64,000 bases of DNA from Thermoproteota archaeon (GCA_027491415.1 JAOZFH010000007.1:1-64000); one strand, 5' to 3'; positions 434 through 21,675 are shown, counted from the stretch's first letter. Program-made: numbers and translations. Notes: generated by a model from the letters alone, not told the origin.

Positions 434-1756
434 TCAGAGCCGGTCCCAGAGCGCTTGGGCCAGCTCCTTCGCCTCCTCAAAGATCTGCTCCTCGTCGACC
501 GTGAGTAGTTCTCCATTCCTCACCACGAACTTCCCGTCCACCACCACGTCCGTCACGTGGGAGGCGTCCATGCCGAATATGAAGTGCCACGGGAAGTTCC
601 CCTCGTGCACGGGCGTGTACGGCCTGTAGCTCAGCACCATGAGGTCGGCGAACGCTCCGGGGACGATCTTGCCGAGGGGCTTGGTGAAGTACTTGGCCGC
701 CAGCTCGGAGTTGTTATGGTAGAGCATCTCGAGTACCTTGTCGGCCCCCATGACCCTAGGGTCGGCCATGTGGAGCTTGTGAAGCGTGTAAGCAACCTTT
801 GCCTCCCTGAACATGTCCATCGTGAAGCCGTCCGTGCCCAGGGCGGGCCTGATGCCGAGCTCCATCATCCTGACGACGGGCGCCACTCCGACGGCGTTGT
901 TCATGTTGGACTCGGGGTTGTGGACCACGTTAGTTCCCGTGTCCTTCAGTATCCTGAGCTCCCTCTCGTTGGTGTGCACGCAGTGGGCCGCGATCGTCTT
1001 CTCCCCCAAGATGCCGGCCCCCCAGAGCCTCTCCACGACCCTCCTGCCCGACTTCTTCAGGCTGTCGAAGACGTCCTCGACCCCCTCGGCCACGTGTATG
1101 TGGAACCCGGTGTCAAGCCCCTTGGCCGCCTCGACGACCTTCTCGAGCGTCTCGTCCGAGAGGGTGAGCTGGGCGTGGAGCCCGAAGCTCCCGGTGATGA
1201 ACTCATCTCCCTGGTGCCTCTTGATGAACTCGACGTTCTCCCTGATCCCCTCCTCAGCCCTGTCGAGCCCGTCCCTGTCCGAGACCTCGTAGGCTATGTT
1301 GGCCCTAACGCCGACCTTTCTGAACGCCTCGGCGAGCCTCTCAAGGCTTCCGGTGATGGCGAAGGGGCTGGCGTGGTGGTCGAACATCGTGGTGGTCCCG
1401 TGCCTCACGGCCTCTATCGCCGTGACCAGCCCGCTGTAGTAGACGTCGTCCAAGGTCAGCCTCTTGTCAAGGTGCCACCATATCCTCTCTAGGATCTCCA
1501 CGAACCTCGTCGGGGGTTCAACTTTCAGTGGCATCCCCCTGGCGAAGGCGCCGTAGGCGTGACAGTGGGCGCAAATCAGCCCTGGCATGATTACCGATTT
1601 GGGGAATTCGATGATGTCTTCACCGGGGTTCTCCTTGACTATCCGCTCCTTGGGCCCCACGTCTTTGATCACGTTGCCCTCGACGAGGACGGCCCCATCC
1701 TCTACGAGGCCGACTCCTCTCTGAAAGGTCACAACCCACTTTCCCGACAGTATCAC
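434..1756 (-). CDS. ssnA: SsnA-like metal-dependent aminohydrolase (amidohydrolase superfamily)
   Basis: ICAHCHAY (HxH), FDHHASP, YEVSDRDG, HIHVAEG, HNPESNMNN and GTDG motifs typical of SsnA. Confidence 0.8.
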   Translation of the reverse strand: MILSGKWVVTFQRGVGLVEDGAVLVEGNVIKDVGPKERIVKENPGEDIIEFPKSVIMPGLICAHCHAYGAFARGMPLKVEPPTRFVEILERIWWHLDKRLTLDDVYYSGLVTAIEAVRHGTTTMFDHHASPFAITGSLERLAEAFRKVGVRANIAYEVSDRDGLDRAEEGIRENVEFIKRHQGDEFITGSFGLHAQLTLSDETLEKVVEAAKGLDTGFHIHVAEGVEDVFDSLKKSGRRVVERLWGAGILGEKTIAAHCVHTNERELRILKDTGTNVVHNPESNMNNAVGVAPVVRMMELGIRPALGTDGFTMDMFREAKVAYTLHKLHMADPRVMGADKVLEMLYHNNSELAAKYFTKPLGKIVPGAFADLMVLSYRPYTPVHEGNFPWHFIFGMDASHVTDVVVDGKFVVRNGELLTVDEEQIFEEAKELAQALWDRL

Positions 1757-1956
1757 CGCGCACCCCTCCGGCTGGTGGGACGTCGGGGGACCTTTCTATT
1801 AACAGGCACCCGAACGTTTGGCCCCTGTCCGAAGGTGGCTACGGGGAGCGACTCGTGGGGCAATTGGTTTTGAGATTTAACCTCGTTCTAGGGCTGGCCG
1901 GGTCGCCCCCAGTGTTAGATTAATATGGTTCCCGAAAAAGGCGGTCGGGGGGAAAC

Positions 1957-3525
1957 TTGGCCTCTGAGGCTACCGCCGTGGCGAGCGAGCCCCGAGAAAC
2001 CGACCTCCTCGTTAAGATGGTCAGTATCGTAAAGAGATTCCCCGGAGTGCTGGCCAACGATCACGTCAACTTCGAGCTGAGGCCCGGAGAGGTACACGCC
2101 CTCCTTGGCGAGAACGGCGCCGGGAAGACCACCCTGATGAACATACTCTATGGAATATACCACCCGGACGGCGGCGAGATCTACGTCAGGGGCAGGAGGG
2201 TCGAGATCAGGAGCCCCAGGGACGCGATGAGCCTCGGAATAGGGATGGTCCACCAGCACTTCATGCTCGTGGATCGGCACACGGTGGCGGAGAACATAGC
2301 CCTGGGGTACGCCAAGAGTCTGATGAACCCGTTGAAGGAGATAAAGGAGAAGCTAAGGGAGTTCGCCGAGAAGTACGGGCTCAAGGTCGATCCGGACGCC
2401 TACATCTGGCAGCTCTCCGCGGGCGAGCAGCAGAGAGTCGAGATAATCAAGGCCCTCTACCACGGTGCCGACATACTCATACTCGACGAGCCTACTTCGG
2501 TGCTGACTCCGCAGGAGACGAAGGAGCTGTTCAAGATCGTCGAGAGGATGAGGGATGAGGGCAAGGGCATAATCTTCATCACCCACAAGCTGGACGAGGT
2601 GTTCGAGGTCGCCGACCGGGTCACGGTCATGAGGAGGGGGAAGGTCGTCGGCACTCTGAAGGCCAGCGAGACGACTAAGGAGGAGCTCGCGAGGATGATG
2701 GTGGGCAGGGAAGTCCTGTTCAGGTTGGAGAAAGAGCGCGTCTCGAGGGGTAAGCCCGTCTTGGAGGTTGAGAACCTACACGCCCTGAACGACAGGGGGC
2801 TCCCCGCGGTCAGGGGGGTCAGCTTCAGGGTCCACGAGGGCGAGATCTTCGGCATAGCCGGGGTCGCGGGGAACGGTCAGAGGGAGCTTGCGGAGGTCGT
2901 AGTAGGACTCAGGAAGGCCACCGCGGGCCGAGTGCTCATAGACGGGGTAGATGTCACAAACAAGTCGCCCAGGTTCATCTCCTCCAAGGGGGTAGCCCAC
3001 ATTCCGGAAGAGAGGCTGAGGCACGGCATCGTGCCCAACCTGAGCGTCGCCGAGAACCTCATCCTCAAGGACTACTACAAGGAGCCCTACAGGAGGGGGC
3101 TGCTCCTGGACCACTCTAAGGTGATCGAGGATGCCGAGAGGCTCATCAACAAGTTCGACATAGTGACCCCAAGCCCCCTGACACCGGCGAAGCTCCTGTC
3201 CGGGGGGAACATCCAGAGGCTGATATGCGCCAGGGAACTCCACAAAGAGCCCAGGCTCATCGTGGCCGCCCACCCCACCTACGGGCTGGACGTCGGTGCG
3301 ACCGAGTACATCCGCCGGATTCTGCTCGAACAGAGGAAGAGAGGGGCCGCCGTGCTCCTAATCTCCGAGGACCTCGAGGAGGTGCTCCAGCTCAGCGACA
3401 GGGTGGGGGTGATGTTCAACGGTGAAATCGTCGGCATAGTCAGGCCTGAAGAGGTCTCTATTGAGGAGATAGGGCTAATGATGGCCGGAGCCAGAAGGCT
3501 TGCCAGGGAGGAGATGGCCTCATGA
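1957..3525 (+). CDS. Nucleoside/purine ABC transporter ATP-binding protein (two ABC domains, CUT2/NupA-like)
   Basis: GENGAGKTT, LSAGEQQRVEI, ILDEPT, second domain GVAGNGQ...LSGGNIQR. Confidence 0.9.
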   Translation: MASEATAVASEPRETDLLVKMVSIVKRFPGVLANDHVNFELRPGEVHALLGENGAGKTTLMNILYGIYHPDGGEIYVRGRRVEIRSPRDAMSLGIGMVHQHFMLVDRHTVAENIALGYAKSLMNPLKEIKEKLREFAEKYGLKVDPDAYIWQLSAGEQQRVEIIKALYHGADILILDEPTSVLTPQETKELFKIVERMRDEGKGIIFITHKLDEVFEVADRVTVMRRGKVVGTLKASETTKEELARMMVGREVLFRLEKERVSRGKPVLEVENLHALNDRGLPAVRGVSFRVHEGEIFGIAGVAGNGQRELAEVVVGLRKATAGRVLIDGVDVTNKSPRFISSKGVAHIPEERLRHGIVPNLSVAENLILKDYYKEPYRRGLLLDHSKVIEDAERLINKFDIVTPSPLTPAKLLSGGNIQRLICARELHKEPRLIVAAHPTYGLDVGATEYIRRILLEQRKRGAAVLLISEDLEEVLQLSDRVGVMFNGEIVGIVRPEEVSIEEIGLMMAGARRLAREEMAS

Positions 3526-4598
3526 GGGTGATAGTTCGGAAGCGCGTGGTTGTGCCCCGAAGGTTCGCCCTCGCCGTCAGGATAGGATCCGTCGTGTTGG
3601 CCCTGCTGGCGGTGGCCGTCATATTCCACGCGTACGGGGTGAACCCGTTCGACGTCTACAGGTCCATCTTCTTCAACGCGTTTGGCACAAAGGTCGGCCT
3701 CACCGAGACCATAGTGAGAATGATGCCCCTCCTGCTCGTCAGCGCCGGACTCGCGCTGGTTTTCAAGACGGGCTTCTGGAACATAGGGGCCGAGGGCCAG
3801 CTCTTGGTGGGGGCGATGGCGGCCTACGTGGTGGCCAGGACCTTCCCGGACGCGCCGCCCATCGCGCTCATACCATCCATGTTCTTGGTTGGATTCGCGG
3901 CCGGCGCGGCCTGGGGCATCCCGCCCGCGGTCCTGAAGGCGAAGCTGAACGTGAACGACGTCATATCAACCCTGATGCTCTACTACGTCATCTACTGGGT
4001 CTTCCAGCACCTCATTCACGGGCCTTGGAAGGCCAGGGAGAAGGTCGGTCAGCTCACTTACGGTGGGTTCGCGCACACAGAGATCATATCCAAGAACGCC
4101 TGGCTGCCAGTGATCGGGGAGACCAGGATACACTGGCCCACGCTGGTCCTCTCCGTTCTGGCCGCCGTGGGGGTGTACGTGTTTCTGAACTACACTACAG
4201 CTGGCTACGAGATGAAGGTTGTGGGCGACAACCCCGAGGCCGCCAGGGCGGCCGGGATCAGCTATCTGAGGACCGTGACCCTGGCCATGATCATAAGCGG
4301 CGGCCTCGCCGGGCTGGCGGGCGTCGGGGAGTTCGCGGGCATCCAGCACAGGTTCACGCCCGAGTTCCTCTCGGGGTACGGCTTCACGGGTATAATCACG
4401 GCCTGGCTCGGCGGCGTCAACCCGATCGGCCTGCTGATCGCCAACTTCCTCTTCGGAGGGCTACTAGTGGGCGGGCAGTACATCATGATCGACTACAAAC
4501 TCCCGATCGGCGTGGTCGACATGTTCAACGGCGCCATCCTCTTCTTCGTCCTCGCCGGTGACTTCCTCCTCCGATACAGGATTCAGATCAGGAGGTGA
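3522..4598 (+). CDS. Nucleoside ABC transporter permease 1
   Basis: Hydrophobic; WNIGAEGQ, GYGFTGI; ATGA overlap with the ATPase gene. Confidence 0.9.
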   Translation: MRVIVRKRVVVPRRFALAVRIGSVVLALLAVAVIFHAYGVNPFDVYRSIFFNAFGTKVGLTETIVRMMPLLLVSAGLALVFKTGFWNIGAEGQLLVGAMAAYVVARTFPDAPPIALIPSMFLVGFAAGAAWGIPPAVLKAKLNVNDVISTLMLYYVIYWVFQHLIHGPWKAREKVGQLTYGGFAHTEIISKNAWLPVIGETRIHWPTLVLSVLAAVGVYVFLNYTTAGYEMKVVGDNPEAARAAGISYLRTVTLAMIISGGLAGLAGVGEFAGIQHRFTPEFLSGYGFTGIITAWLGGVNPIGLLIANFLFGGLLVGGQYIMIDYKLPIGVVDMFNGAILFFVLAGDFLLRYRIQIRR

Positions 4599-5539
4599 TG
4601 CGGATGGACCTGTCGGTGGTTGAGAACATCCTGTGGGTCGGTTTCAGATCGGCGACCCCCCTCCTCCTCGCCTCCCTCGGCGAGATCTACGCAGAGAGGT
4701 CGGGAATACTCAACCTGGGCGTCGAGGGCATGATGATAATGGGGGCGGTATCCGCCTTCATCACCGCACTGACCACGGGCAACCCCTGGCTGGGCGTGGC
4801 CGTGGCGACGGCGGTCGGCATACTAATGTCCCTCATACACGGGGTAATCAGCATCCACCTCCGGGGCAACCAGGTCGTCTCCGGCCTGGCCCTCACGATG
4901 TTCGGGCTCGGGCTGAGCAGCGTGATCGGGAGGAAGTACGTCGGCTATCAGCTACCCGTAAAGGCGAGGTTCCTCCCCAAGCCTCTTGCGGAGGGGCTTG
5001 TCAAGCTTCCGGTGATAGGTAAGGCGCTGTTCGACCAAGAGCCGCTGTTCTACCTCAGCATAGTGATCGCCGTCGTTCTCTGGTTCGTCCTCTACAGGAC
5101 CAAGGTGGGGATAGTTATCAGGTCAACGGGCGAAAATCCTGCAGCGGCCGACGCCCTTGGAATTAACGTCTACCTCGTGAGGTACGCCTGCACAGCCCTT
5201 GGAGGGGCCCTGGCTGGCATGGCTGGGGCCTACCTATCGGTGGCCTACAGCCCGGCCTGGATAGAGAACATGACAGCTGGCAGGGGCTGGATAGCGCTGG
5301 CGCTCACGATATTCGCCCTCTGGAACCCGCTGAGGGCAATATTCGGGGCCTACCTGTTTGGAGTCGTCGAGGCCGGGGGGTACACCCTGCAGGCCTACGG
5401 GTACAGCCAGTGGCTCCTGAACGGAGTGCCGTACCTATTAACGGTGATAGTCCTCACCGCCGGCGCCACGGAGACCATGAGGAGGAGGATGGGGGCTCCG
5501 GCAGCGCTCGGAGTGCCCTACGTGAGGGGAGAGAAGTAG
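4598..5539 (+). CDS. Nucleoside ABC transporter permease 2 (start 4598 or 4604)
   Basis: ERSGILNLGVEG, GENPAAAD, TAGRGWIALA, C-terminal APAALGVPY; SD GGAGGTG. Confidence 0.9.
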   Translation: MRMDLSVVENILWVGFRSATPLLLASLGEIYAERSGILNLGVEGMMIMGAVSAFITALTTGNPWLGVAVATAVGILMSLIHGVISIHLRGNQVVSGLALTMFGLGLSSVIGRKYVGYQLPVKARFLPKPLAEGLVKLPVIGKALFDQEPLFYLSIVIAVVLWFVLYRTKVGIVIRSTGENPAAADALGINVYLVRYACTALGGALAGMAGAYLSVAYSPAWIENMTAGRGWIALALTIFALWNPLRAIFGAYLFGVVEAGGYTLQAYGYSQWLLNGVPYLLTVIVLTAGATETMRRRMGAPAALGVPYVRGEK

Positions 5540-5769
5540 CCCCCTCCCCCTCTCCCTCATTTGAGGCCGGGCCGCCGGGCCCCCGCTGGGTCGGGGACTC
5601 ACCCGGTGATCGATCGGCGCCTGCCGAAGTCCCTTCGAAAATATTGACAAAGAACGTCTGTGAATACAATAATTTTAACAATTTGGGGACGATGCCCGCT
5701 TTTCTCGGGTAAGACGCTCGTTTTACCGGGCCGAACGCCCGGGCGGCGGGGTTAGCTTTTCGACTCCCG

Positions 5770-5782
5770 GGAAAAATTTATG
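5770..5782 (+). promoter_or_regulatory. BRE/TATA-like promoter for the BMP substrate-binding gene
   Basis: ggaaaaatttatg about 55 nt upstream of ATG 5834. Confidence 0.5.
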
Positions 5783-5833
5783 GGCATCAAATCGGCAATC
5801 AACTCACCCACGCTCTCCGTGGGAGGGATAGAC

Positions 5834-7138
5834 ATGACCTCATCCCAATGGGCTGCCTTAGTTATAGTTGGCATCATAGTCGGGGCGGCGATCGGGTACC
5901 TTGCGGCGCCGAAGGGCGCGGCGGAGTGCCCCCCGTGTCCGACCGAAACTCCGGCCCCGGCAACCTGCCCTCCGTGCGAGGCACCCCCGGTCAAGAAGAT
6001 CAAGGCGGCATGGATATACGTTGGACCGATCGGGGACATCGGTTGGACTTACGCTCACCACGCCGCTAAGGAGATGGTCGACCAGAAGTACGACTGGCTG
6101 GAGACCACCCACGTGGAGTCGGTCGCCCCGGCCGAGTGCGCCGGAGTGATAGAGCAGCTGATCGGCCAGGGCTACGACGTGATCTTCACCACAAGCTTCG
6201 ACTTCATGGATCCGACCCTCGAGGAGGCCCAGAAGCACCCCGACAAGATCTTCTGGCACTGCTCCGGCTACAAGAGGGCTCCCAACATGGGCACCTACTT
6301 CGCCGACTTCTACCAGGTCTACTACCTGAACGGCCTGATGGCTGGCGCCCTGACCCAGACCAAGAAGATCGGCTACGTCGCCGCGCACCTGATCCCCGAG
6401 GTGGTGAGGCACATCAACGCCTTCGCGCTGGGCGTCAAGGAGGTCTGCCCCGACTGCAAGGTCTACGTCAGGGAGATAGGCGCCTGGTACGATCCGACCA
6501 AGGCTAGGCAGGCCGCCGAGGCCCTGATCTCCGAGGGCGTCGACGTGCTGGCATTCACGGAGGACTCGCCGACCGTCGTCCAGGTCGCCCAGGAGCACTT
6601 CGAGAGGGGCGAGAGGGTCCTCGCCTTCGGCCACTACAGCCCGATGCTTGAATACGGTCCCGACGTCTGCGTCAGCGGTCAGCTGGTGCACTGGGAGGTG
6701 ATCTACGACGACATCCTGAGCAAGATATACTCCGGCTCCTACAACACCCAGAACCTGCAGAACGTGGACTACTGGTGGAAGCTGAAGGAGGGCTCCGTCG
6801 AGCTGGGCTGCGCCTTCAACCAACCGATCAACCCCAAGTTCATCAACGAGCTCAAGTCCGTCAGGGTCCAGGAGACCATCCAGCTGCCCAACGGCACCAT
6901 AATCGAGAACCCGGATGTCTACACCCTCGTGATGGCCAGGCTCATCCAGATGGGCGCGGTCTGGACAGGCAGCGGGTGGGTGTTCGTGAACGACGAGGTC
7001 TTCGATCCCTTCACCGGGCCCATCTACGACGACCAGGGGACGCTGAGGGTCATGGCCGGACAGAGGCTAGGCCACGACGAGCTCTGGTCCATGCAGTGGT
7101 GGGTTGACAACGTAGTCGGGCCGGCCCTGGGCGGCTGA
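5834..7138 (+). CDS. BMP-family (PnrA/Med-like) nucleoside ABC substrate-binding protein with N-terminal membrane anchor
   Basis: N-terminal TM, Pro/Thr/Cys linker, IYVGPIGDIGWTYAH, TTSFDF, EVVRHINAFALG; SD GGAGGG before ATG 5834. Confidence 0.88.
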   Translation: MTSSQWAALVIVGIIVGAAIGYLAAPKGAAECPPCPTETPAPATCPPCEAPPVKKIKAAWIYVGPIGDIGWTYAHHAAKEMVDQKYDWLETTHVESVAPAECAGVIEQLIGQGYDVIFTTSFDFMDPTLEEAQKHPDKIFWHCSGYKRAPNMGTYFADFYQVYYLNGLMAGALTQTKKIGYVAAHLIPEVVRHINAFALGVKEVCPDCKVYVREIGAWYDPTKARQAAEALISEGVDVLAFTEDSPTVVQVAQEHFERGERVLAFGHYSPMLEYGPDVCVSGQLVHWEVIYDDILSKIYSGSYNTQNLQNVDYWWKLKEGSVELGCAFNQPINPKFINELKSVRVQETIQLPNGTIIENPDVYTLVMARLIQMGAVWTGSGWVFVNDEVFDPFTGPIYDDQGTLRVMAGQRLGHDELWSMQWWVDNVVGPALGG

Positions 7139-7164: not shown

Positions 7165-7335
7165 CGCGATGACCGCCCTTCCTCAAGCTTCGCTCCATCA
7201 GAAGGTGCCCTTCCTTGCCTCTGACTCGATATATCCAGAGAGGATAACGTTCTGAATTCGGATTCCCAATCCTATGATTTATTTGGTCTCTGTGGAAGGC
7301 CCTTGTTTGGCCCATTCAGGGCTGGCGGTGATCAC

Positions 7336-7830
7336 ATGGTTGAGGGGGTTCAGAACCTCTTGGTAATAGACCCCGACAAGTGCACCGGGTGCAGGATTTG
7401 TGAAGAGGCCTGCTCCTTTCATCACTACGGCGAGTTCAACCCCAGGCGATCTTACATACAGGTCCTGAGGAATGACTTCGAGGGCGTCTTCATCCCCATG
7501 ACCTGCCAGCACTGCGGCAAGCCCCTATGCGTCGAGGCCTGCCCGACCGGCGCCCTATACCAGTTCGGCAACGCCGTCTTCCTCGACAAGTCCAAGTGCA
7601 TAGAGTGCAAGCAGTGCCTCAACGCCTGCCCGTTCGGCGGCATTCAGGTGGACCCGGTGACATTCCAGGTGGTGAAGTGCGACCTCTGCGGCGGAGACCC
7701 GCAGTGCGCCAGGAGGTGCCCCACGGGCGCCATCAAGTGGGTCAGGGCCGACCAGGTTGGCTACCAGAAGAAGGTTGACGGGGCCCAGAGGTCCGCCAGG
7801 CTGATCTCATTGATAGTCCCCCAGGGGTGA
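7336..7830 (+). CDS. 4x[4Fe-4S] ferredoxin-like subunit (DmsB/AorA-type partner of AOR)
   Basis: CTGCRICEEAC, CQHCGKPLCVEAC, CIECKQCLNAC, CDLCGGDPQCARRC; SD GCGGTGA before ATG 7336. Confidence 0.9.
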   Translation: MVEGVQNLLVIDPDKCTGCRICEEACSFHHYGEFNPRRSYIQVLRNDFEGVFIPMTCQHCGKPLCVEACPTGALYQFGNAVFLDKSKCIECKQCLNACPFGGIQVDPVTFQVVKCDLCGGDPQCARRCPTGAIKWVRADQVGYQKKVDGAQRSARLISLIVPQG

Positions 7831-9770: not shown

Positions 9771-9775
9771 GCCCG

Positions 9776-11013: not shown

Positions 11014-11517
11014 GTGGCCCAGATGATGTTGCTGATAACGCCCGAGCTGTGCACCGGGTGCAGGCTCTGCGAGGGGGCCTGCTCCTTCCATCACTACCGT
11101 GTGATCCAGCCCTCCAGGTCTAGGATCACGGTGGTGAAGTTCGAAGACCGCGGGCTCGACGTTCCCGTCACGTGCCTCCAGTGCGACGACGCGCCGTGCG
11201 TCGCGGCGTGCCCGACCAGCGCGCTGTGGAAGGACGAGGAGTCCGGGCTCGTGGTATACGAGGCCGAGAGGTGCATTGGATGCAAGTCCTGCATCACCGC
11301 CTGCCCGTTCGGCGGCGTGGGGTGGGACGCCGAGACCAACAGCATACTGAAGTGCGACTGGTGCGGCGGAGACCCGCAGTGCGCCAGGATCTGCCCAACG
11401 GGCGCCATCAAGTGGGTCAGGGCCGACCAGGCCGACGACACCAAGAGGAGGATGGTCGCCCTCAGGATGCAGGAGGTGGCCCAGAACCTGATGGCCCCGA
11501 AGAGGGCAGGGGTGTGA
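11014..11517 (+). CDS. 4x[4Fe-4S] ferredoxin-like subunit, copy 2 (start 11014 or 11023)
   Basis: Four Cys clusters; paralogue of 7336..7830; SD GGAGGTG; T-run after the preA stop precedes it. Confidence 0.9.
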   Translation: MAQMMLLITPELCTGCRLCEGACSFHHYRVIQPSRSRITVVKFEDRGLDVPVTCLQCDDAPCVAACPTSALWKDEESGLVVYEAERCIGCKSCITACPFGGVGWDAETNSILKCDWCGGDPQCARICPTGAIKWVRADQADDTKRRMVALRMQEVAQNLMAPKRAGV

Positions 11518-11520
11518 GAG

Positions 11521-13488: not shown

Positions 13489-14843
13489 CGGTTGACCTCG
13501 TGGTCCGGGGCGCCAGGGTCCTGACCTCCCAGTTCATGGTCGAGAGAGCCGGCGTCGCCGTCCAGGACGGGAAGATCGTGGCCCTGGCAAAGGATCCCCA
13601 CCTGCCGGAGGCCTCCCAGGTCGTTGACGCCGACGGGAAGATCCTGATGCCTGGGGCCATAGACGCGCACGCGCACATCTACGATCCGGACTACACGCAC
13701 AGGGAGGACTGGAAGAGCGGGAGCGAGGCCGCCGCTGCCGGTGGCGTTACCCTGCTCATGGACATGCCCCTGGTTCTCACAGTCATGCCGGAGCTGGCCA
13801 GGCAGAAGATAGAGGTGGGCGAGAGGGAGTCCCTCGTAGACTTCAGCCTGCACGCGGGCATGATGACGAGCGAGGAGCACCTGAGGAGGATGCCCGAGCT
13901 TGCGGAGATGGGCATCCTCTCCTTCAAGGCGTTCACCACCAAGCCCTTCCTGGCCAGCTACGACTACATAGAGGAGCTCCTGATCAGGGCGTCCGAGCTT
14001 GGTGGCAGGATTGTCGTCCACTCGGAGGACAATCAGGTGATAGAGAGGGGGGTTCACAGGGTCAGGGACGTTGAGGGGAGGAAGGACCCTCTGGCCCACC
14101 ACGACTCGAGGCCGCCCGAGGCTGAGGCCGTCGCCGTGGCCCGGATAATCGAGTCAGTGGCCAGGGTGGGCGGGCATTATCACGTTGCCCACATAAACAC
14201 GGCCAGGGGGGCCGAGCTGGTGGCCCACGCCAAGGCCAGGGGTCTCAGGGTGACTTCGGAGACGTGCGTCCACTACCTGGTATTCACGAAGGACGATGTG
14301 GGGAAGTGGGGGCCCTACCTCAAGATGACCCCGCCCCTCAGGACCAAGGAGGACGTCAGGGGGCTCTGGGAGGCCTTGCTCACCGGCGGCGTGGACATGA
14401 TCGCCACGGACCACGCCCCCGGCACCAGGGAAGAGAAGGAGGTCGGCTGGGACGACATATGGGAGGCCTGGGGCGGCATCCCCGGGGTGGAGACGCTGCT
14501 TCCGATCTCCATGAGCGAGGGGCTCCACAGGTGGGGGATACCGCCCACCGTGCTCTGCGCGGCCCTCTGCGCAAACCCGGCGAAGGCGTTCGGGATGTAC
14601 CCCAAGAAGGGCGAGCTGGCCCCCGGGTCAGATGCGGACCTCGTCGTCTACGACCAGAGCCTGGAGGTAGAGATCAGGGCCGACAGGCTCCACTACAAGG
14701 TGGGCTGGACGCCCTATGAGGGGATCGTCGTAAGGGGCTGGCCCGTCTTGGTCACCGTACGGGGTGAGGTCGTGGCCCAGGACGGCGAGCCCGTCGGGCG
14801 CCCCGGCCACGGGGAGTTCGTCAGGATGGGGAGGTGGAGGTGA
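13485..14843 (+). CDS. Cyclic amidohydrolase (dihydropyrimidinase/hydantoinase HyuA/allantoinase family)
   Basis: IDAHAH, AAAAGGVT, SFKAF (carboxylated Lys), VHSED, AHIN, TPPLR, TDHAP, NPAK, GSDADL. Confidence 0.9.
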   Translation: MTVDLVVRGARVLTSQFMVERAGVAVQDGKIVALAKDPHLPEASQVVDADGKILMPGAIDAHAHIYDPDYTHREDWKSGSEAAAAGGVTLLMDMPLVLTVMPELARQKIEVGERESLVDFSLHAGMMTSEEHLRRMPELAEMGILSFKAFTTKPFLASYDYIEELLIRASELGGRIVVHSEDNQVIERGVHRVRDVEGRKDPLAHHDSRPPEAEAVAVARIIESVARVGGHYHVAHINTARGAELVAHAKARGLRVTSETCVHYLVFTKDDVGKWGPYLKMTPPLRTKEDVRGLWEALLTGGVDMIATDHAPGTREEKEVGWDDIWEAWGGIPGVETLLPISMSEGLHRWGIPPTVLCAALCANPAKAFGMYPKKGELAPGSDADLVVYDQSLEVEIRADRLHYKVGWTPYEGIVVRGWPVLVTVRGEVVAQDGEPVGRPGHGEFVRMGRWR

Positions 14844-14845
14844 TT

Positions 14846-16783
14846 ATGGATTCGGAGTCGATCGGAGTTGCCGGGAAGTACGGCGGCTGGGCCGGTCAAA
14901 TCCTTTGGGTCGACCTGAGCAGACAGAAGGTCGTGCCAAAGCCGCTGGACGAGGAGCTGGCGCTGAACTACCTCGGGGGAACGGGGTTCGCGGCCAGGTG
15001 GCTCTTCGACCTGGTCGGACCGGAGGTGGACCCGTTCAGCCCGGACAACGTCTTCATACTGGCCACGGGGGTTCTCACCGGGACGATATTCCCCCAGGCC
15101 AGCAGGCACATAGTCGCCGCCAAGTCCCCGCTCACCGACGTCTACGGCGAGGCCCACGCCGCCGGGCACTTCGGCGCCGAACTCAAGTTCGCCGGATTCG
15201 ACGCGGTCGTGGTCACCGGCAGGTCTGACAAGCCGGTCTACATATACATCGAGGACGGGAAGGCCGAGATAAAGGACGCCAGCCACCTGTGGGGGAGGAC
15301 GACCTACGAAGCGGAGGAGATTATCAAGGAGGAGATCGGAGACAGGCAGGTCAAGGCGGCGCTGATAGGGCAGGCCGGCGAGAACCTGGTGAGGTTTGCC
15401 GGCGTCTTCAACGACCACGGCAGGGCCGCGGCTAGGGCCGGCATCGGCGCCGTCATGGGCTCCAAGAGGCTCAAGGCCATCGCGGCCAGGGGTTACAGAC
15501 CCATCAAGGTGGCCAGGCCCGACGAGTTCTACGAGACCATGATCGAATACGGCAAGAGGATGCTCGCCCACCCGTTCACGCCGGACAGGGTGAAGTACGG
15601 CACCAACAGCCTGGTTGAGCTCATGCAGGCCATAGGCAGGCTGCCGGCGTACAACCACAGGGAGGGCGTGTTCGACGAGTGGGAGAAGATCTCCGGGGAG
15701 AGGGTGACGAGGGAGTACCTGCTCAAGCCAAAGGCAGACTTCGCCTGCTATCAGAGGTGCGGCCGGTTCGTCCGAGTGCCCTCCGGCAAGTACGCCATGG
15801 TAGGTAAGGGGCCCGAGTACGAGGGTCTGGACGCGCTGGGGGCCAACGTGGGGAACAGCGACCTGGAGGCCCTGATCTACGCCAACCACCTGTGCAACCT
15901 CTACGGGATGGACGTCATATCCGCCGGAGGGGTCATAGCCTGGGCCATGGAGTGCTGGGAGAACGGCCTCCTCACCAAGGAGGACACTGGCGGTCTGGAG
16001 CTCGAGTGGGGAGACCCTGAGCTGATAGTCCAGCTGATCGAGATGATCGCCCTTAGGAAGGGCTTCGGGGACCTACTGGCCGAGGGCGTCTACCGGGCCG
16101 CCAAGAAGATCGGGAGGGGAACTGAGAAGTACGCGATGCACGTGAAGAAGATGGAGATAGCTGCGCAGGACGGCAGGGCCCAGAAGAGCATGGGGCTGGC
16201 TCACGCTACCTCCAACAGGGGTGCTGACCACCTCTACGCGTTCCCGGTGCTGGACGAGGTGGGTTTCGAGAAGGACATAGTCGAGAGGTTCGGAGAGCAG
16301 TACCTCCCCGAGATGACGGACAGGTTGAACCCCAAGTACAAGGGCATCATGGTGGCGGAGCTGGAGGACTTCGGGGCCGTGGTCGAGGCCGTGGGCGTGT
16401 GCAAGTACGGCACCATAATCCCGCCGGTCTTCTTCTACCCGGACCTGGCGGAGGCCCTGACGCTGGTGACCGGGAAGAAGTACACGGAGGCCGACCTAAG
16501 GCTAATCGGCGCCAGGATCGTGAACCTCCAGAGGCTGTTCAACGTGAGGGAGGGTCTGACTAGGAAGGACGACACGCTGCCGGGCAGGTTCACCAAGGAG
16601 CCAATGCCGAGGGGGCCTGCCAAGGGACAGGTGGTGGAGCTCGACCAGATGCTGGACGAGTACTACCAGTACAGGAACTGGGACGTGAAGACTGGCATCC
16701 CCAGAAAGAGCCTCCTGTCAGAGCTTGGCCTGGAGAAGGAGGCAGAGGAGCTCGAGCGGCGGGGGATAAGGATCCCGCCGTGA
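14846..16783 (+). CDS. AOR/WOR family tungstoenzyme, copy 3
   Basis: KSPLT, AAARAGIGAVMGSK, DFACYQRC, GPEYE, RGADH, DDTLPGRF; SD GGAGGTGA. Confidence 0.92.
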   Translation: MDSESIGVAGKYGGWAGQILWVDLSRQKVVPKPLDEELALNYLGGTGFAARWLFDLVGPEVDPFSPDNVFILATGVLTGTIFPQASRHIVAAKSPLTDVYGEAHAAGHFGAELKFAGFDAVVVTGRSDKPVYIYIEDGKAEIKDASHLWGRTTYEAEEIIKEEIGDRQVKAALIGQAGENLVRFAGVFNDHGRAAARAGIGAVMGSKRLKAIAARGYRPIKVARPDEFYETMIEYGKRMLAHPFTPDRVKYGTNSLVELMQAIGRLPAYNHREGVFDEWEKISGERVTREYLLKPKADFACYQRCGRFVRVPSGKYAMVGKGPEYEGLDALGANVGNSDLEALIYANHLCNLYGMDVISAGGVIAWAMECWENGLLTKEDTGGLELEWGDPELIVQLIEMIALRKGFGDLLAEGVYRAAKKIGRGTEKYAMHVKKMEIAAQDGRAQKSMGLAHATSNRGADHLYAFPVLDEVGFEKDIVERFGEQYLPEMTDRLNPKYKGIMVAELEDFGAVVEAVGVCKYGTIIPPVFFYPDLAEALTLVTGKKYTEADLRLIGARIVNLQRLFNVREGLTRKDDTLPGRFTKEPMPRGPAKGQVVELDQMLDEYYQYRNWDVKTGIPRKSLLSELGLEKEAEELERRGIRIPP

Positions 16784-16829
16784 TTTTTGTGGGGCCGAGG
16801 GGCTCCCCACACCCACTTTTTGGTCTTTC
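16784..16829 (+). terminator. Terminator of the AOR operon
   Basis: T-run, tgtgggg...ccccaca hairpin, then cttttttgg. Confidence 0.55.
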
Positions 16830-16930
16830 CCCTCAATGCGATGAGGCCCCTCACGCAGCCTCCCGGAAGAGCTACCCGCCGACCGAATCCATTTTTATGA
16901 CGAGTACGCGACCCAGGCCGGGGATTCAGC

Positions 16931-18787
16931 CTGACTGAGGGAGAGCGGGAGGTCTCCCTGAAGAGGGACGTCGGCTGGTTTGGCTCCTTCGCCATGGGCT
17001 ACGCCGATGTGGGCGCTGACGTATTCATAGCCCTAGGCCTCGTGGCAGCCTACGCGGCCGGAGGGCTTCCCCTAGCCTTCTCCCTCGCGGCGATAGCCTA
17101 CGTCCTCACGGGACTCGTCTACGCAGAGCTCTCCTCTACCTACCCGTACGCGGGCGGGGCGCAGGTCTATGCTGCGAGGGGGCTGGGGGATCCAGCTGGA
17201 TTCGTCGCCGGATGGGCCCTCCTTCTGAGCTACACGGTGGACATCGCCCTGTTCTCCATGGCCTCAGCTGGCTACCTATCCTACTTCTTCCCTCAAATAG
17301 CCTCCTTCTCTCACCGCGTGCTCGGTGTGGAGCTGAACGGGTTCGCCGCGTGCTCCATAGTCATGATACTGGCTCTGATAGGTCTCAACGTGCTAGGGAT
17401 CAGGGAGTCCTCTCGGCTGAACGAGATAATGGTCTCCCTCGGCTTGGCCGTTCAGGGCGCCCTCCTGCTGATCGGCCTCGCCTACATGAGAGCCGACACG
17501 CTCAGGGAGAACCTCCGGGAGGTCGGCTACCCTGGGGTGAGGGAGGAGGTCGCCTACCTGCCCGGAATCGGCGTGAGGGAGCAGAACTTCATCTACGGCA
17601 CCACGCTGGCCATGAGCTCCTTCATAGGCGTGGAGTCTATCGCCCAGGCAGCTGAAGAGATAAAGAGGCCCTACAAATGGATCCCACTGGCCACCAAGCT
17701 CTCGGTGGTGGCCGTCCTGGTTTTCGCGCTCGGACTCTCTCTGGTGGGAGTTGGGACCGTCGGCTGGCGGCCCCTGGCCGAGAACGCGGAAAGGCCCCTC
17801 ACGGTCTTGGCGGAATCCCTCCCCGTGATCAGGGGAGTTGCCCCGGCGCTGGTGGCCGCCACCGGATTCGTGATCAACCTGGTCTCGGCGAACACCGGGA
17901 TAATCGGCGTCTCAAGAGTGGTCTACTCCATGGGCAGGTTCCAGCTGATGCCCTCCTGGTTCAAGGCCATACATCCTAGGTTCAGGACGCCGATCAGGAC
18001 GATAGTCCTCTTCGGCCTCCTCGGAGGGCTCTTGACGCTGCTCGGCAGCCTTGAGAAGATCGCGGACGTGTACGCCTTCGGGGCCCTTGCTTCTTACGTC
18101 TTGGTAAATGTCTCCATGATCCGGCTCAGGGAGATAGATAGGGATGCCTACCGGCCGTGGAAGGCGCCGGGCTCCATTGAGGTGGGCGGGAGAGAGATCC
18201 CCCTGGTGGGCCTCATGGGCGCCCTGGCCACGGGCATCATGTTCGTCCTAGTGGCGGCCCTCCACCCTGTGGGCCGGTCGCTGGGCACGGCGTGGTTCGT
18301 GGTAGGCCTCGCGGTCTTCGCGGCCTATCGGACGGCAGTGGGCCTGCCGATCACAGGGAGGATAAGTGGAGAGATGTCCAGGCCCGCCAACTACCTCATG
18401 GACGCCCTTGTGCTCTTCAGACCCTACGACGATCCGGAGAAGGTGGCGCGCGCTGTCGCGGAGGGCCTCAGGGGCAGGTTCAGGGTCCACCTGCTCAGCG
18501 TCGTTAACCCCGCGGGCATGTCGCCCGACGAGCTCTCCGACGAGGCTGGCAGAATCCTTACCTCACTTGAGGAAACCGCCAAGAGGCTCAGATCCCGGGG
18601 GATCCTCGTGACGACTTCGGTCATGTACGGCGAGCCAGTGGAAGTGGCCGTCATGGAGGGCTCGAGCGACAGGTACGACCTCGTCGTGGTGCTCACATCG
18701 AGGCGAGCCATGAAGTCTAAAGAGAGGGGCCTGGCCAGGGTAGTGTCGGCGAGGCTTCCCGGGAAGGTGTTGGTCCTCAGGAGGTGA
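16931..18787 (+). CDS. APC-family amino acid permease fused to a C-terminal USP-like domain (probable CTG start at 16931 or 16958; first ATG at 16994)
   Basis: LKRDVGWFGSFAMG lies upstream of the first ATG; YAELSS, AGGAQVY, FIGVESIAQAAEE, IHPRFRTP; C-terminal HLLSVV...GEPVE USP pattern. Confidence 0.85.
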   Translation: MTEGEREVSLKRDVGWFGSFAMGYADVGADVFIALGLVAAYAAGGLPLAFSLAAIAYVLTGLVYAELSSTYPYAGGAQVYAARGLGDPAGFVAGWALLLSYTVDIALFSMASAGYLSYFFPQIASFSHRVLGVELNGFAACSIVMILALIGLNVLGIRESSRLNEIMVSLGLAVQGALLLIGLAYMRADTLRENLREVGYPGVREEVAYLPGIGVREQNFIYGTTLAMSSFIGVESIAQAAEEIKRPYKWIPLATKLSVVAVLVFALGLSLVGVGTVGWRPLAENAERPLTVLAESLPVIRGVAPALVAATGFVINLVSANTGIIGVSRVVYSMGRFQLMPSWFKAIHPRFRTPIRTIVLFGLLGGLLTLLGSLEKIADVYAFGALASYVLVNVSMIRLREIDRDAYRPWKAPGSIEVGGREIPLVGLMGALATGIMFVLVAALHPVGRSLGTAWFVVGLAVFAAYRTAVGLPITGRISGEMSRPANYLMDALVLFRPYDDPEKVARAVAEGLRGRFRVHLLSVVNPAGMSPDELSDEAGRILTSLEETAKRLRSRGILVTTSVMYGEPVEVAVMEGSSDRYDLVVVLTSRRAMKSKERGLARVVSARLPGKVLVLRR

Positions 18788-18792
18788 GTTCC

Positions 18793-19053
18793 ATGCTCGT
18801 GATAATCAACCTCTATGTTGAAGCGAAGTATCTGGAGTCTCTAGTTGACGAGCTCAAGCAGATGCCTGAGGTGGTCGACCTGTTCGAGGTCACGGGAGAC
18901 CAAGACTTGGTCTTGATAGTCGAGGCCGAGTCCATCGAGCACTTCAGGAGCGTACTCGTGAAGAGGATCCTCAAGAAGCAGGGCATCAACGGCTCCAACA
19001 GCCTAGTTGTGCTCCACACCCACAAGAGGATGGGGAGGCTGTTGGAGGAGTGA
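18793..19053 (+). CDS. Stand-alone Lrp/AsnC ligand-binding (RAM) domain protein
   Basis: PEVVDLFEVTGDQDLVLIV motif; no HTH; SD GAGGTGA. Confidence 0.8.
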   Translation: MLVIINLYVEAKYLESLVDELKQMPEVVDLFEVTGDQDLVLIVEAESIEHFRSVLVKRILKKQGINGSNSLVVLHTHKRMGRLLEE

Positions 19054-19496
19054 GCGAAGGAGGCAAGAGGGTCCTAGTCCTCTTAGATGAGCCCGTCAGC
19101 GCGGAGTGCCTCGTGGGCCTCCTGGCCGGGACCCTCGGACTGACCTCGGCGGAGGTGACCCTCCTCCACGTGGTGACGGTGCCCAGGACGAGCCCCCTCG
19201 AGACCTCTGCCCTGAGGGAGCCCTCGCGCGAGGCGCTCGAGTGGCTCGATGCGCTGGCCAGCAGGCTGGCAGAGCACGGCCTGGCGGCCAGGGCCAGGGT
19301 GGCCATATCAAGGGACGTCGAGACCGCCCTGGTCGAGTCGGCGGAGGGGCAGGACCTGATGATCATTCCGACCCGGTCTATGGGGTCGGGCCTGCTGAGG
19401 GCCCTCCGGGGGTGCCCAGCGGAGAAGCTCGCTGATAGCATCAGAATTCCGGTGGTGCTCGTGAGCAGAGACCTCATGACCTGCCCGAACCTTTAG
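19050..19496 (+). CDS. Universal stress protein
   Basis: KRVLVLLD, VTLLHVV, DLMII, IPVVLV. Confidence 0.75.
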   Translation: MSEGGKRVLVLLDEPVSAECLVGLLAGTLGLTSAEVTLLHVVTVPRTSPLETSALREPSREALEWLDALASRLAEHGLAARARVAISRDVETALVESAEGQDLMIIPTRSMGSGLLRALRGCPAEKLADSIRIPVVLVSRDLMTCPNL

Positions 19497-20622
19497 GCAG
19501 GTGGGTCTCTGCCAGCCTCACTATCCTCGCGTAACCCTCTGCGGCCGCCCTTAGGTCGGCCACCCTGACCCTTTCGTTCGGCCTGTGGGCCAGGGTCTCG
19601 TCGCCGGGCCCGTACCCGATTGTCAGGATGCCCGCCTCTCCAGCAGTGTAGGAGCCGTCCGTCCCGAACCTCCACGTTACCAAGTCGCCCCCCAGCTCCC
19701 TGGCCGCCAGGCTGGCGAAGTCGCTGGGCATGTACCACGCCGGGAAGTACGCCCTCACCCGGTTCTCAAGGCCGGTGTAGCACCTTATGGTCTTGGTGAC
19801 GACCGAGGCCTCGACCCCTGGCCTCAGTAACCTCATCCTGGACAGGATCGACTCGAGCGTCTCGTCCGGCACCATCCTGTAGTCCAGCAGGGCCTCGCAG
19901 GCGTCTGGGATGACGGGAATGACCCCGGGCGAGCAGCGTATCGCGACCGGCGCGACGGAGGATCTCCCCAGGACCTCGTGCTCAGGTAGCTCGCACGAAA
20001 TCTCCCTGAGCCTGACCAGCGCCTCCACCAACTTGTAGAGCGCGCTGTCCCCCAGGTCGGGCATGCTGGAATGGGCCGTCCTTCCCCCCGCGGAGAGCCT
20101 GATCTCGACCCTCCCCCTGTGCCCCACCGCTACGTTGAGTCTCGTGGCCTCCCCCAGGACCACGAGATCTGGCCTTATTCCGGCCTCCTCGAGGAACATC
20201 CTGATTCCGAAGCCCTCCTGGTCCTCCTCGTGCACCACGAAGGCCATGTACACGTCGGCGTCCAGCGAGTCCAGCAGGGGCGCGGAGTGCACCATGGCCG
20301 CTATGGCCCCCTTCATGTCAACGGAGCCCCTGCCGAACAGCCAGCCGTCCCGAACCTCCCCAGAGAACGGGTCGACCCTCCACTCTCCCACCCTCCCCGG
20401 GGGGACGGTGTCCATGTGTCCCTCTAGCACTACCACGGGCCCGGCTCCGGACCCCCTGATCAGCCCGCCGACGTTTCCAGCTCCGTCTATCCACGTCCTG
20501 TCGAATCCCAGTGAGTTCATCTCATCTCGGATCAGGCCAGCGACCTCACCCTCATCCCCCGAGAGGCTGGGAGTCTGGACAAGCCTGGAGCAGAACTGTA
20601 TCACCTCCTCTCTGCCGCTCAG
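19474..20622 (-). CDS. YgeY-like M20 metallohydrolase (start GTG 20604 or CTG 20622)
   Basis: GHMDTV, GRGSVDMKG, VHEEDQEG, GHRGRVEI, YFPAW, WRFGTDG, GYGPGDETLAH.PNE follow the YgeY pattern. Confidence 0.8.
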   Translation of the reverse strand: MSGREEVIQFCSRLVQTPSLSGDEGEVAGLIRDEMNSLGFDRTWIDGAGNVGGLIRGSGAGPVVVLEGHMDTVPPGRVGEWRVDPFSGEVRDGWLFGRGSVDMKGAIAAMVHSAPLLDSLDADVYMAFVVHEEDQEGFGIRMFLEEAGIRPDLVVLGEATRLNVAVGHRGRVEIRLSAGGRTAHSSMPDLGDSALYKLVEALVRLREISCELPEHEVLGRSSVAPVAIRCSPGVIPVIPDACEALLDYRMVPDETLESILSRMRLLRPGVEASVVTKTIRCYTGLENRVRAYFPAWYMPSDFASLAARELGGDLVTWRFGTDGSYTAGEAGILTIGYGPGDETLAHRPNERVRVADLRAAAEGYARIVRLAETHLPKGSGRS

Positions 20623-20709
20623 GCCCCCTCCACCCTCCGAGGGCGGATTGGGTGCATGTTTTTAACCCTCCGGAGGGCGGCGCTTCCCGCGTCTCGGAGG
20701 TGAAGGCGC

Positions 20710-21675
20710 TTGACCGACTTGGGGAAGAGGATACTGATCGCCCTGGGCGGAAACGCCATCAAGCAGGCTCACGAGAAGGGCACCTATGAGGAGCAGCTCC
20801 GCAACGTGGAGAAGACCGCCGCCCAGCTGGCCAAGCTCGTGCAGAGGGGGTACCACCTGGCCATAACCCACGGGAACGGCCCTCAGGTGGGCGCCCTCCT
20901 GATTCAGCAAGAGGAGGGGCAGAGGCTCGGGATCCCGCCCCAGCCCATGGACGTGTGCGGCGCCATGACCCAAGGTCAGATAGGGTACATGCTCCAGCAG
21001 GCCCTCATGAACGAGTTCAGGAAGATAGGCTTGGACAAGCTCGCGGCCACCGTGGTGACTAGGGTGCTCGTTCGGAAGGACGATCCCGACTTCCAAGACC
21101 CGTCCAAGCCCGTAGGCCCGTTCTACGACGAGGAGACCGCCAAGAAGCTCGCTGAGGAGAGGGGATGGGTCATCAAGAAGGTGAAGCCCAATGCGGACAA
21201 GCCCTACAGGAGGGTGGTTCCCTCCCCAGATCCCATCAGGCCGCTAGAGGCCGACGCGATCAAGAAGCTCTACGACAGCGGCATCATAGTGATCGCCAGC
21301 GGAGGCGGCGGGATACCGGTCATCGAGGAGGACGGGAAGATCAAGGGCGTCGAGGCGGTCATCGACAAGGACCTCGCCGGCGAGAGGATGGCCGAGGTCC
21401 TTGGCGTCGACATCTTCATGATCCTCACCGACGTGGAGAAGGTCAAGCTGAACTACGGGAAGCCTGACGAGAGGGAAATAGACAGGATGACCGTCTCCGA
21501 GGCGAAGAAGTACTACGAGGAGGGCCACTTCCTGCCCGGCAGCATGGGCCCGAAGGTCAAGGCCTGCATCAGGTTCGTCGAGGAGGCCGGCGGGAAGGCC
21601 GCTATAATCACCCACTTGGAGAAGGCCCTCGACGCTCTGGAGGGGAAGACCGGGACCTGGATAGTCCCGGACTGA
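20710..21675 (+). CDS. arcC: Carbamate kinase
   Basis: [55 protein letters not shown]. Confidence 0.95.

Follow-up and report, generated by a model that had tools for sequence, protein, structure and literature searches.

The DNA analysed here (hereafter the window) is the initial 64 kb of contig C41 from a Thermoproteota archaeon (GCA_027491415.1, JAOZFH010000007.1:1-64000), which belongs to a metagenome-assembled genome (MAG) of 1.78 Mb that is 96% complete. At 434-21675 it carries a nucleobase island in which three genes of the aldehyde oxidoreductase (AOR) family, AOR1 to AOR3, are interleaved with the genes of two iron-sulfur (FeS) polyferredoxins, a UacX-type ring reductase and a cyclic amidohydrolase. 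Judged from sequence, the island is most readily understood as an archaeal (Korarchaeia-like) variant of the UacX-type reductive purine pathway, to which a Bmp-type importer has been added. With a probability of roughly 0.4, we favour a wired complex of AORs, polyferredoxins and UacX, in which AOR2 would contribute electrons from aldehydes and AOR3 or AOR1 would be candidates for chemistry at the purine ring. This reading builds on gene content, family membership, synteny, co-occurrence and active-site substitutions, all of which were observed directly.

Genes were called from an open reading frame (ORF) listing in combination with Pfam and NCBIfam scans of the window proteins, and scores are given in bits against the curated cut-offs. 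Labels beginning with G, L and C denote genomes, fetched loci and contigs, respectively; G000 is the source genome.

Operon structure and gene content

The operon spans 9.5 kb on the plus strand in the order FeS1-AOR1-reductase-FeS2-AOR2-amidohydrolase-AOR3. FeS1 (7303-7830), matching several Fer4 families, and FeS2 (11014-11517), for which a GTG start following a GGAGGTG-like site was set on refinement, encode polyferredoxins of the WorS/AorA type and are situated directly upstream of their WorL-type partners. These are the pterin subunit AOR1 (7827-9770; AFOR_N 279 bits, AFOR_C 418 bits) and AOR2 (11521-13488; 289 and 409 bits), respectively. Between AOR1 and FeS2 lies the gene of the 400-residue UacX-type reductase (9761-10963; PF01180 and Fer4). 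AOR2 is followed by a cyclic amidohydrolase of the L-hydantoinase/allantoinase/dihydroorotase type (13485-14843; pyrC_multi 300 vs 279) and by AOR3 (14834-16783; AFOR_C 462 bits), the most diverged of the three paralogues.

All genes named in the initial annotation were recovered at or near the positions it had assigned to them. The overlapping stops and starts that it described are present at four junctions, namely FeS1/AOR1 and AOR2/amidohydrolase with 4 bp each, and AOR1/reductase and amidohydrolase/AOR3 with 10 bp each. The remaining gaps amount to 50 bp between reductase and FeS2 and 3 bp between FeS2 and AOR2.

The ring reductase is of the UacX type

The reductase had been labelled PreA-like, a designation that is not retained, as it scores well below the cut-off of the PreA model (NF006183, 199 vs 335) and lacks the catalytic loop of this family. 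A profile built from 11 orthologues aligns to residues 530-820 and 912-998 of pig dihydropyrimidine dehydrogenase (DPD), i.e., domains IV-V. The protein thus consists of an FMN (PF01180) domain and two [4Fe-4S] motifs, without an FAD/NAD domain. The 12-residue DPD loop with the catalytic Cys671 (Ser-Cys-Pro) is deleted, and the equivalents of Asn609 and Asn736 are retained.

For comparison, 80 metagenome loci were seeded with SsnA, and DPD-like ORFs of at least 250 residues from 18 chosen loci were examined. Ten loop-less neighbours with the same 12-residue deletion share 43-51% identity with the window reductase, whereas seven loop-bearing neighbours share only 22-31%. Loop-less reductases occur in the operons YgeY-carbamoyltransferase-UacX-Xdh(three subunits)-SsnA of L177 and YgeY-amidohydrolase-SsnA-UacX-Xdh of L176 (GC content 31%), where Xdh denotes xanthine dehydrogenase; both are 43-45% identical to the reductase of the window. 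Due to the loop deletion and the identity to SsnA-linked loop-less homologues, we assign the reductase to the UacX type and not to PreA. Both types of DPD-like genes occur together in L162-L165, where two SsnA paralogues are also encoded and the amidohydrolase shares 47-48% identity with that of the window.

In clusters of the C. difficile type, the PF01180 protein UacX takes the place of YgfK, and a ferredoxin-type electron donor was proposed (10.1101/2025.05.19.654654). According to the same source, reduction of the purine ring is thermodynamically unfavourable. It is preceded by dehydroxylation of urate to 2,8-dioxopurine by an Xdh-type enzyme (10.1101/2025.04.24.650524). Located seven genes apart, the reductase and SsnA of the window fall inside the 15-gene neighbourhood criterion of 10.1101/2025.05.19.654654; the SsnA network as presented there is restricted to bacteria, whereas the host in the present case is an archaeon.

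SsnA, the amidohydrolase and the question of pyrimidines

In bacteria, reduced 2,8-dioxopurine undergoes ring opening by SsnA, and YgeY is responsible for cleavage of the ureido group in this pathway. The SsnA-family amidohydrolase of the window (434-1756, minus strand) exceeds the cut-offs of both equivalog models (NF005540, 553 vs 444; TIGR03314, 524 vs 455.5), and by this score it is assigned to the family of the reductive urate pathway. The M20 hydrolase encoded at 19474-20604 on the minus strand scores above the cut-off of one YgeY model (NF009555, 328 vs 321) and below that of the other (TIGR03526, 256 vs 321.5). A carbamate kinase gene (20710-21675, plus strand; TIGR00746, 433 vs 358) is oriented divergently from it.

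The amidohydrolase of the operon was annotated as a hydantoinase. It remains below the cut-offs for D-hydantoinase (TIGR02033, 301 vs 393) and allantoinase (TIGR03178, 336 vs 358), and its closest solved relative is the L-hydantoinase 1GKR (276 bits). We therefore place it, more broadly, among the cyclic amidohydrolases.

The reductive pyrimidine pathway (PydA/PreA, dihydropyrimidinase, beta-ureidopropionase) uses the same three enzyme types. Accordingly, the island might serve the degradation of pyrimidines or monocyclic ureides (uracil/thymine, orotate, hydantoins), with the reductase as PydA, the amidohydrolase as PydB and the M20 hydrolase as PydC. An AOR would then oxidise malonate or methylmalonate semialdehyde and close the redox balance, and SsnA would be an add-on. 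Such a role agrees with the retained Asn609 and Asn736 equivalents and with the amidohydrolase, which scores near the models of dihydropyrimidinase, dihydroorotase and allantoinase alike. It also agrees with the genes for a HIBADH-type reductase and a class-III aminotransferase in the vicinity, and with G014, in which the operon occurs with a YgeY-like gene 12 kb downstream and without SsnA. Against it stand the missing Cys loop of a reductase that groups with the SsnA-linked subgroup, an amidohydrolase that stays below the dihydropyrimidinase cut-off, the adjacency of SsnA in two genera, the adenine deaminase in the cluster of L024 (see below), and the position of the aminotransferase among amino-acid fermentation genes. 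We consider pyrimidine degradation improbable.

In a recurrent type of SsnA neighbourhood (L128-L130, L133, L137, L139, L140, L142-L144, L146, L150, L153, and L166), an adenine-deaminase-like gene (37-40% identity), an allantoinase-like gene and a Bmp ABC (ATP-binding cassette) transporter were found. Some of these loci additionally contain one or more carbamoyltransferase genes and a carbamate kinase gene, and often neither UacX nor Xdh was detected in range.

Synteny across archaeal lineages

To assess conservation, 79 loci seeded by alignment to AOR2 were screened with the window proteins. Synteny of the operon extends to at least 12 loci, which belong to several lineages of archaea, and hence its arrangement is not attributed to chance. 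FeS2 is located directly between UacX and AOR2 in L017-L019, L021-L023, L025, L027, L029, and L033. The order UacX-FeS2-AOR2 occurs in Korarchaeia-like MAGs (L017-L023 and L027) as well as in MAGs with Nitrososphaeria or Thaumarchaeota titles (L025, L029, and L033). In the Bathyarchaeial locus L024, UacX immediately precedes AOR2 and the FeS gene is displaced. In the bacterial MAG contigs L068 and L080 the order is the same, and the DPD-like protein is a distant one. The number of AOR genes in the module varies from two to three across loci. Their interleaving with pathway genes, as had been noted for the window, is kept in every lineage that carries the operon.

In L024 an adenine deaminase gene (TIGR01178, 600 vs 472) is situated between an AOR gene and UacX. 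Because the UacX-FeS-AOR2 kernel recurs and L024 includes this deaminase, purine catabolism is the likely role of the island. The kinship with the bacterial reductive urate cluster that had been proposed earlier is thus upheld by the SsnA equivalog, the loop-less SsnA-linked reductase and the deaminase of L024. In case of L029, two carbamoyltransferase genes of the ornithine transcarbamylase (OTC) type flank the amidohydrolase gene, and two SsnA-like genes and a ThrC-like pyridoxal phosphate (PLP) enzyme gene are present.

A paralogous module was identified in a congener (G010:C5:789-11314, L106). It consists of genes for a DeoC-family aldolase, a loop-less UacX-like protein (38%), an AOR (51%), an FeS protein, an M20 hydrolase, an SsnA-like protein, an amidohydrolase and a second AOR. 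In this module one TGA is all that separates the UacX-like gene from the AOR gene, with which it shares a reading frame. A module of this type was not found in the source genome, and pairs of a UacX paralogue and an AOR occur in G009, G041, and G044.

Same-subfamily FeS-AOR pairs also stand alone in many Asgard and Hadarchaeal loci, as would be expected if the AOR-FeS and nucleobase genes were mere neighbours without a common pathway. Start/stop overlaps that span AOR, reductase and amidohydrolase genes, interleaving that persists both in the paralogous module and between archaeal lineages far removed from each other, and the strict co-occurrence of AOR3 with UacX all argue against coincidental proximity, which we regard as very unlikely.

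AOR paralogues and polyferredoxins

The source genome contains nine AOR-family genes, of which the copy on C9 encodes a canonical AOR (651 bits to 1AOR). AOR1-3 are approximately 50% identical to one another and score 432-472 bits against 1AOR (AOR1, 454 bits), AOR2 reaching 476 bits with 9MQX. The characterised AORs score 401-476 bits against AOR1-3, compared to 545-651 bits against the C9 paralogue. In a FastTree phylogeny of 105 sequences from the AOR2-seeded loci, AOR1, AOR2, and AOR3 constitute three clades that are jointly set apart from the other paralogues; the tree holds no characterised sequences, and placement relative to these rests on bit scores to PDB entries only.

Residues were assigned by alignment to 1AOR, using the second-shell positions listed in PMC12096430. 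Of these, Thr243, Glu313, and His448 are conserved throughout the subfamily (97/97). Gln takes the place of Tyr427 in every member (97/97, including AOR1-3), and Asp that of Cys447 in 95 of 97. AOR1-3 retain the AFOR_N and AFOR_C domains and depart at Tyr427 from the second-shell set of AOR sensu stricto.

AOR2 and the corresponding Asgard clade differ in only six of 212 jointly conserved positions (206 identical). In the Asgard branch of the AOR2 clade, which consists of an FeS and an AOR gene, genes for a class IV aminotransferase and an ELFV dehydrogenase are located just upstream in 33 of 42 loci; these 42 are what remained of 54 Asgard loci when shorter ones were left out, and Pfam was run on representatives from L032 only. 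Owing to this near-identity with homologues in amino-acid operons, AOR2 is read as an aldehyde-type enzyme. Its substrates are most likely aldehydes, and it probably represents the ancestral aldehyde-oxidising unit.

Between AOR3 and the Asgard clade, 64 of 237 jointly conserved positions differ. In all nine members of the AOR3 clade, Cys288, the first Cys ligand of the [4Fe-4S] cluster, is replaced by Asp and Lys450 by Tyr; beyond the window, members occur in L018, L019, L023, L025, L027, L029, L033, and L068. In case of WOR4, a Cys-to-Gly change accompanies a [3Fe-4S] cluster (PMC12096430). Given its restriction to UacX-bearing genomes (see below) and its divergence, the greatest of the three, AOR3 appears as the candidate for purine chemistry, and by the same sequence features it is most likely the paralogue with the best chance of a new substrate.

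FeS1 and FeS2 are 50% identical and share the same Cys pattern. FeS2 has 16 invariant Cys residues, corresponding to four [4Fe-4S] clusters, and FeS1 also contains 16. The sequence of FeS2 includes a C-terminal tail of about 30 residues, which may correspond to the C-terminal helix that mediates oligomer or plug contacts in WorS/AorA proteins. A fourth AOR of the same subfamily is encoded at G000:C22:5361-9615 (L009), together with its own polyferredoxin and a divergently oriented FAD/NAD oxidoreductase with PadH-like matches. This locus resembles the NAD-linked AorABC.

The benzoyl-CoA reductase subunit BamB had been invoked as a precedent for ring chemistry. This tungsten subunit of the class II enzyme is indeed an AOR-family member that acts on a ring and not on an aldehyde. 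It is nevertheless the weakest and most distant of nine solved relatives (234-252 bits), with only about the first 430 residues aligning. BamB was therefore rejected as a model for AOR1-3, and the earlier analogy is weak.

Occurrence of the module and of Xdh

A survey was made of 40 genomes of the class, which are mutually related, their counts thus not being independent. UacX orthologues, defined by at least 60% identity, occur in 10 of these genomes, SsnA above the cut-off in 11, and both in eight. SsnA and UacX share a contig in G010, G012, G013, G042, and G044 and are no more than about 10 kb apart there. AOR3 orthologues were found in nine of the 10 UacX-bearing genomes and in none of the 30 others. 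When 401 genomes from the phylum to which G045 belongs were scanned, an AOR3 orthologue appeared in G045 only; three candidates per genome were scored, and the result has no bearing on co-occurrence.

Xdh-family genes are present in six of the 40 genomes, namely in the source genus and in G009. Four of the 10 UacX-bearing genomes, G014, G040, G042, and G044 (91, 71, 75, and 93% complete), possess the module without any Xdh-family gene. Beyond the class, Xdh was found in two of five module-bearing genomes checked and is absent from G003, G046, and G047. Judged by gene content, Xdh is dispensable for the module in these seven genomes.

The source genome itself differs in this respect. As stated earlier, the window contains no Xdh-family gene and no YgfK, yet two three-subunit Xdh-family enzymes (PF02738 with FAD and 2Fe-2S subunits) are encoded elsewhere, at C11:2260-4665 and C25:1677-4070. 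They score 563 and 505 bits to XdhA (cut-off 780). The enzyme on C11 adjoins pyrB, and that on C25 is divergent from an allantoinase-type gene (TIGR03178, 404 vs 358) and a Urt-like ABC transporter. C25:1-9800 and C11:1-4700 (L012 and L011) may represent a second, molybdenum-based heterocycle locus. In the congener G010, the two Xdh genes lie 6 kb apart.

These data bear on the proposal of the initial annotation that all three AORs are purine hydroxylases or dehydroxylases (e.g., C2 and C8 hydroxylation and C6 dehydroxylation) in place of Xdh, which would convert hypoxanthine to reduced 2,8-dioxopurine in one redox-neutral complex. The replacement of Xdh agrees with the four Xdh-free genomes among the UacX-bearing 10 and three of the five others checked, but not with the source genome and its two Xdh-family enzymes. 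By our own electron count, three tungsten sites and one FMN correspond to three hydroxylation or dehydroxylation steps and one reduction. The AORs occupy the position that Xdh takes beside UacX in bacterial operons, second-shell substitutions set the subfamily apart, and adenine deaminase is encoded in the L024 cluster as well as on C18 of the source genome. On the other hand, AOR2 is barely distinguishable from Asgard enzymes without nucleobase context, the number of AORs varies between modules, and no AOR-family enzyme acting on N-heterocycles was found in a literature search. In its complete form the proposal is doubtful.

Proposed mechanism and its rivals

In the arrangement that we prefer, the three WorL-type subunits, the two 4x[4Fe-4S] polyferredoxins and UacX would constitute one wired complex, comparable to the ‘nanowire plus plug’ of AorABC and WorABCSL. 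WorS-type wires that end in a redox ‘plug’ (FAD or Bfu) are established for the latter two (PMC12318220). We infer that the presumed tungsten sites would serve as electron input and the FMN of UacX as output, reducing the purine ring before it is opened by SsnA and the amidohydrolase. AOR2 is always found beside UacX; together with FeS2, which is displaced in L024, it would most likely have kept aldehyde oxidation and could provide electrons of very low potential for a difficult ring reduction. AOR3, and possibly AOR1, would be the candidate for purine hydroxylation or dehydroxylation where bacteria employ an Xdh-type enzyme.

AorABC of Aromatoleum aromaticum and WorABCSL of Acetomicrobium mobile share with the putative complex of the window a WorL subunit, a WorS/AorA-type 4x[4Fe-4S] protein with a C-terminal tail, a further redox subunit in the operon, and several tungsten subunits per terminal module. 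They differ in that the further subunit is here a DPD-like FMN/FeS ring reductase and not an FAD/NAD subunit or BfuABC. Moreover, the three WorL subunits of the window are distinct paralogues of about 50% identity, with Tyr427 changed to Gln and an Asp cluster ligand in AOR3. In common with the UacX variant of the E. coli ygeW-xdhD cluster, i.e., the bacterial reductive urate pathway, the island has SsnA, an FAD-less PF01180 reductase with two [4Fe-4S] clusters, a cyclic amidohydrolase, a YgeY-like M20 hydrolase and a nearby carbamate kinase. In contrast to the bacterial cluster, orthologues of XdhD/DOPDH, YgfK, YgeW, and YgeX are missing here, as is the YqeB selenium-cofactor trait from the source genome, and three AORs and two polyferredoxins are interleaved with the reductase, with a nucleoside-type ABC importer attached.

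The strongest competitor is a purely electron-donating role, in which all three AORs are ordinary aldehyde oxidoreductases that feed UacX, and perhaps Xdh, via FeS1 and FeS2. The aldehydes would derive from peptides or deoxyribose, and hydroxylation would be left to Xdh or be unneeded. All characterised AOR-type WorL enzymes covered by PMC12318220 and PMC12096430 oxidise aldehydes, three of the four second-shell residues are kept, and AOR2 hardly differs from Asgard homologues in amino-acid operons. Possible aldehyde-yielding functions are at hand in the form of aminotransferase, indolepyruvate-oxidoreductase-like and ACS-like genes and peptide transporters in the window, and a DeoC-family aldolase gene is the first gene of the paralogous cluster of G010. 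The source genome has its own Xdh enzymes, and a reaction reported as thermodynamically unfavourable (10.1101/2025.05.19.654654) fits a dedicated donor. This explanation leaves unaccounted for why distant lineages retain three separate AOR clades, why AOR3 is confined to UacX genomes, why paralogous clusters have AORs of their own, and from where a substrate of the 2,8-dioxopurine type would come in Xdh-free genomes with SsnA and UacX (G044, 93% complete). We consider it possible, though less probable than a complex in which AOR3 or AOR1 also acts on the ring.

Several observations weigh against the wired purine complex that we favour. Because two Xdh-family enzymes are present, no AOR is needed for ring hydroxylation in the source genome; one of them is 39% identical to the Xdh of a YgeY-carbamoyltransferase-UacX-Xdh-SsnA operon. 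G014 (91% complete) possesses the full operon, and SsnA is absent (best match 242 bits). An AOR gene occurs within 10 kb on either side in just two of the 80 SsnA-seeded loci, and L162-L165 carry loop-less UacX, SsnA, and amidohydrolase genes with no AOR or Xdh gene within the fetched flanks. The Tyr427-to-Gln exchange also occurs in Asgard enzymes whose surroundings are free of nucleobase genes and is therefore not a purine signature. The AOR tree was computed with FastTree from an AOR2-seeded sample that includes no characterised sequences. YgeY-like genes (E<=1e-60) are found in 25 of the 40 class genomes, operon-free ones included; in genus g3, which lacks UacX and SsnA, 13 of 21 genomes have them. 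Carbamate kinase occurs in 39 of the 40, with or without the operon. Finally, neither YgeW (TIGR03316/NF005538, best 182-190 vs 453-500) nor YgeX (TIGR03528, best 37 vs 532) was found in the source genome; a YgeW-like carbamoyltransferase had already been noted as missing from the window.

A genome-wide search of the source genome revealed no carB or carbamoyl phosphate synthase (CPSase) gene. With this and its presence in 39 of the 40 genomes, the carbamate kinase says little about an ATP gain. It was rejected as a pathway marker and is, judged by its distribution, probably a housekeeping enzyme and a general source of carbamoyl phosphate. The earlier claim that the island yields ATP through carbamoyl phosphate is weakened accordingly.

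As to the carbamoyltransferase step, an AOTC-like carbamoyltransferase encoded on C22 (NF003384, 315 vs 288) is 82-83% identical to the product of the gene directly after SsnA in L112 and L118, and it plausibly represents a YgeW analogue. A second OTC-type carbamoyltransferase is encoded at G000:C4:44174-46660 (L010:14174-16660). It remains below all cut-offs, adjoins a TrpB-like PLP enzyme (694 vs 366), and is of the type that flanks the amidohydrolase gene in L029. The PLP enzyme encoded in the window at 23768-24832 was considered as a YgeX substitute and rejected, since it passes cysteine synthase models (TIGR01136, 373 vs 344).

Transport and flanking genes

Between SsnA and the operon, four plus-strand genes encode an ABC importer. 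These are an ATPase with two ABC domains (1957-3525; PF00005, 170 bits in two stretches), two permeases (3522-4598 and 4595-5539; PF02653, 142 and 147 bits, respectively) and a Bmp/PnrA-type substrate-binding protein of the nucleoside type (5780-7138; PF02608, 139.5 bits), which passes no NCBIfam model. The ATPase gene is syntenic in L017, L019, L021, and L023. Downstream of AOR3 follow, likewise on the plus strand, an APC-family permease gene that is possibly part of the island (16994-18787; PF13520, 142 bits), a gene for a small protein with an Lrp/AsnC ligand-binding domain (18784-19053; PF01037, 58.5 bits) and a gene of the Universal stress protein family (19050-19496; PF00582, 33 bits). 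The permease gene is also located downstream of the operon in L019, where it is again followed by an Lrp/AsnC-domain gene.

Beside the island, at 24870-31310 and 37660-45650, amino-acid fermentation genes were found, namely a class-III aminotransferase, an ACS-like CoA ligase and an indolepyruvate:ferredoxin-oxidoreductase-like gene, then an oligopeptide ABC transporter. They are a possible local source of aldehydes. A role of the aminotransferase (24870-26258) as beta-alanine transaminase is not favoured, as the indolepyruvate-oxidoreductase-like and ACS-like genes adjoin it. The contig begins within a gene for an MtmB-family (monomethylamine methyltransferase-like) protein, of which 3-266 (plus strand) encodes the 87 C-terminal residues (PF05369, 82 bits).

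Significance

An operon combining a ring reductase with three AOR-type enzymes and two FeS wires has not yet been described. A literature search returned no paper linking AORs to purines, DPD, SsnA or Korarchaea; the supplementary WOR phylotype tables of PMC12318220 and its reference 24 may list the clade. The reductive urate pathway was elucidated in 2025 in bacteria only, where it proceeds via molybdenum Xdh, which is selenium-dependent in clostridia. The locus would represent its archaeal version, and several of the genomes that bear the operon have no Xdh-family gene at all.

Even on a conservative reading, the DPD-like ring reductase would constitute a fourth kind of terminal module among the AOR nanowires and would tie aldehyde oxidation to heterocycle reduction. 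It is tempting, if rather improbable, to speculate on a single tungsten ‘nanowire’ machine in which three AOR sites lead from hypoxanthine via xanthine and urate to 2,8-dioxopurine and the wired flavin of UacX reduces the product, the whole being redox-neutral and independent of Xdh. If the AORs do act on purines, they would be the first AOR-family enzymes with N-heterocycles as substrates and a tungsten counterpart of xanthine dehydrogenase.

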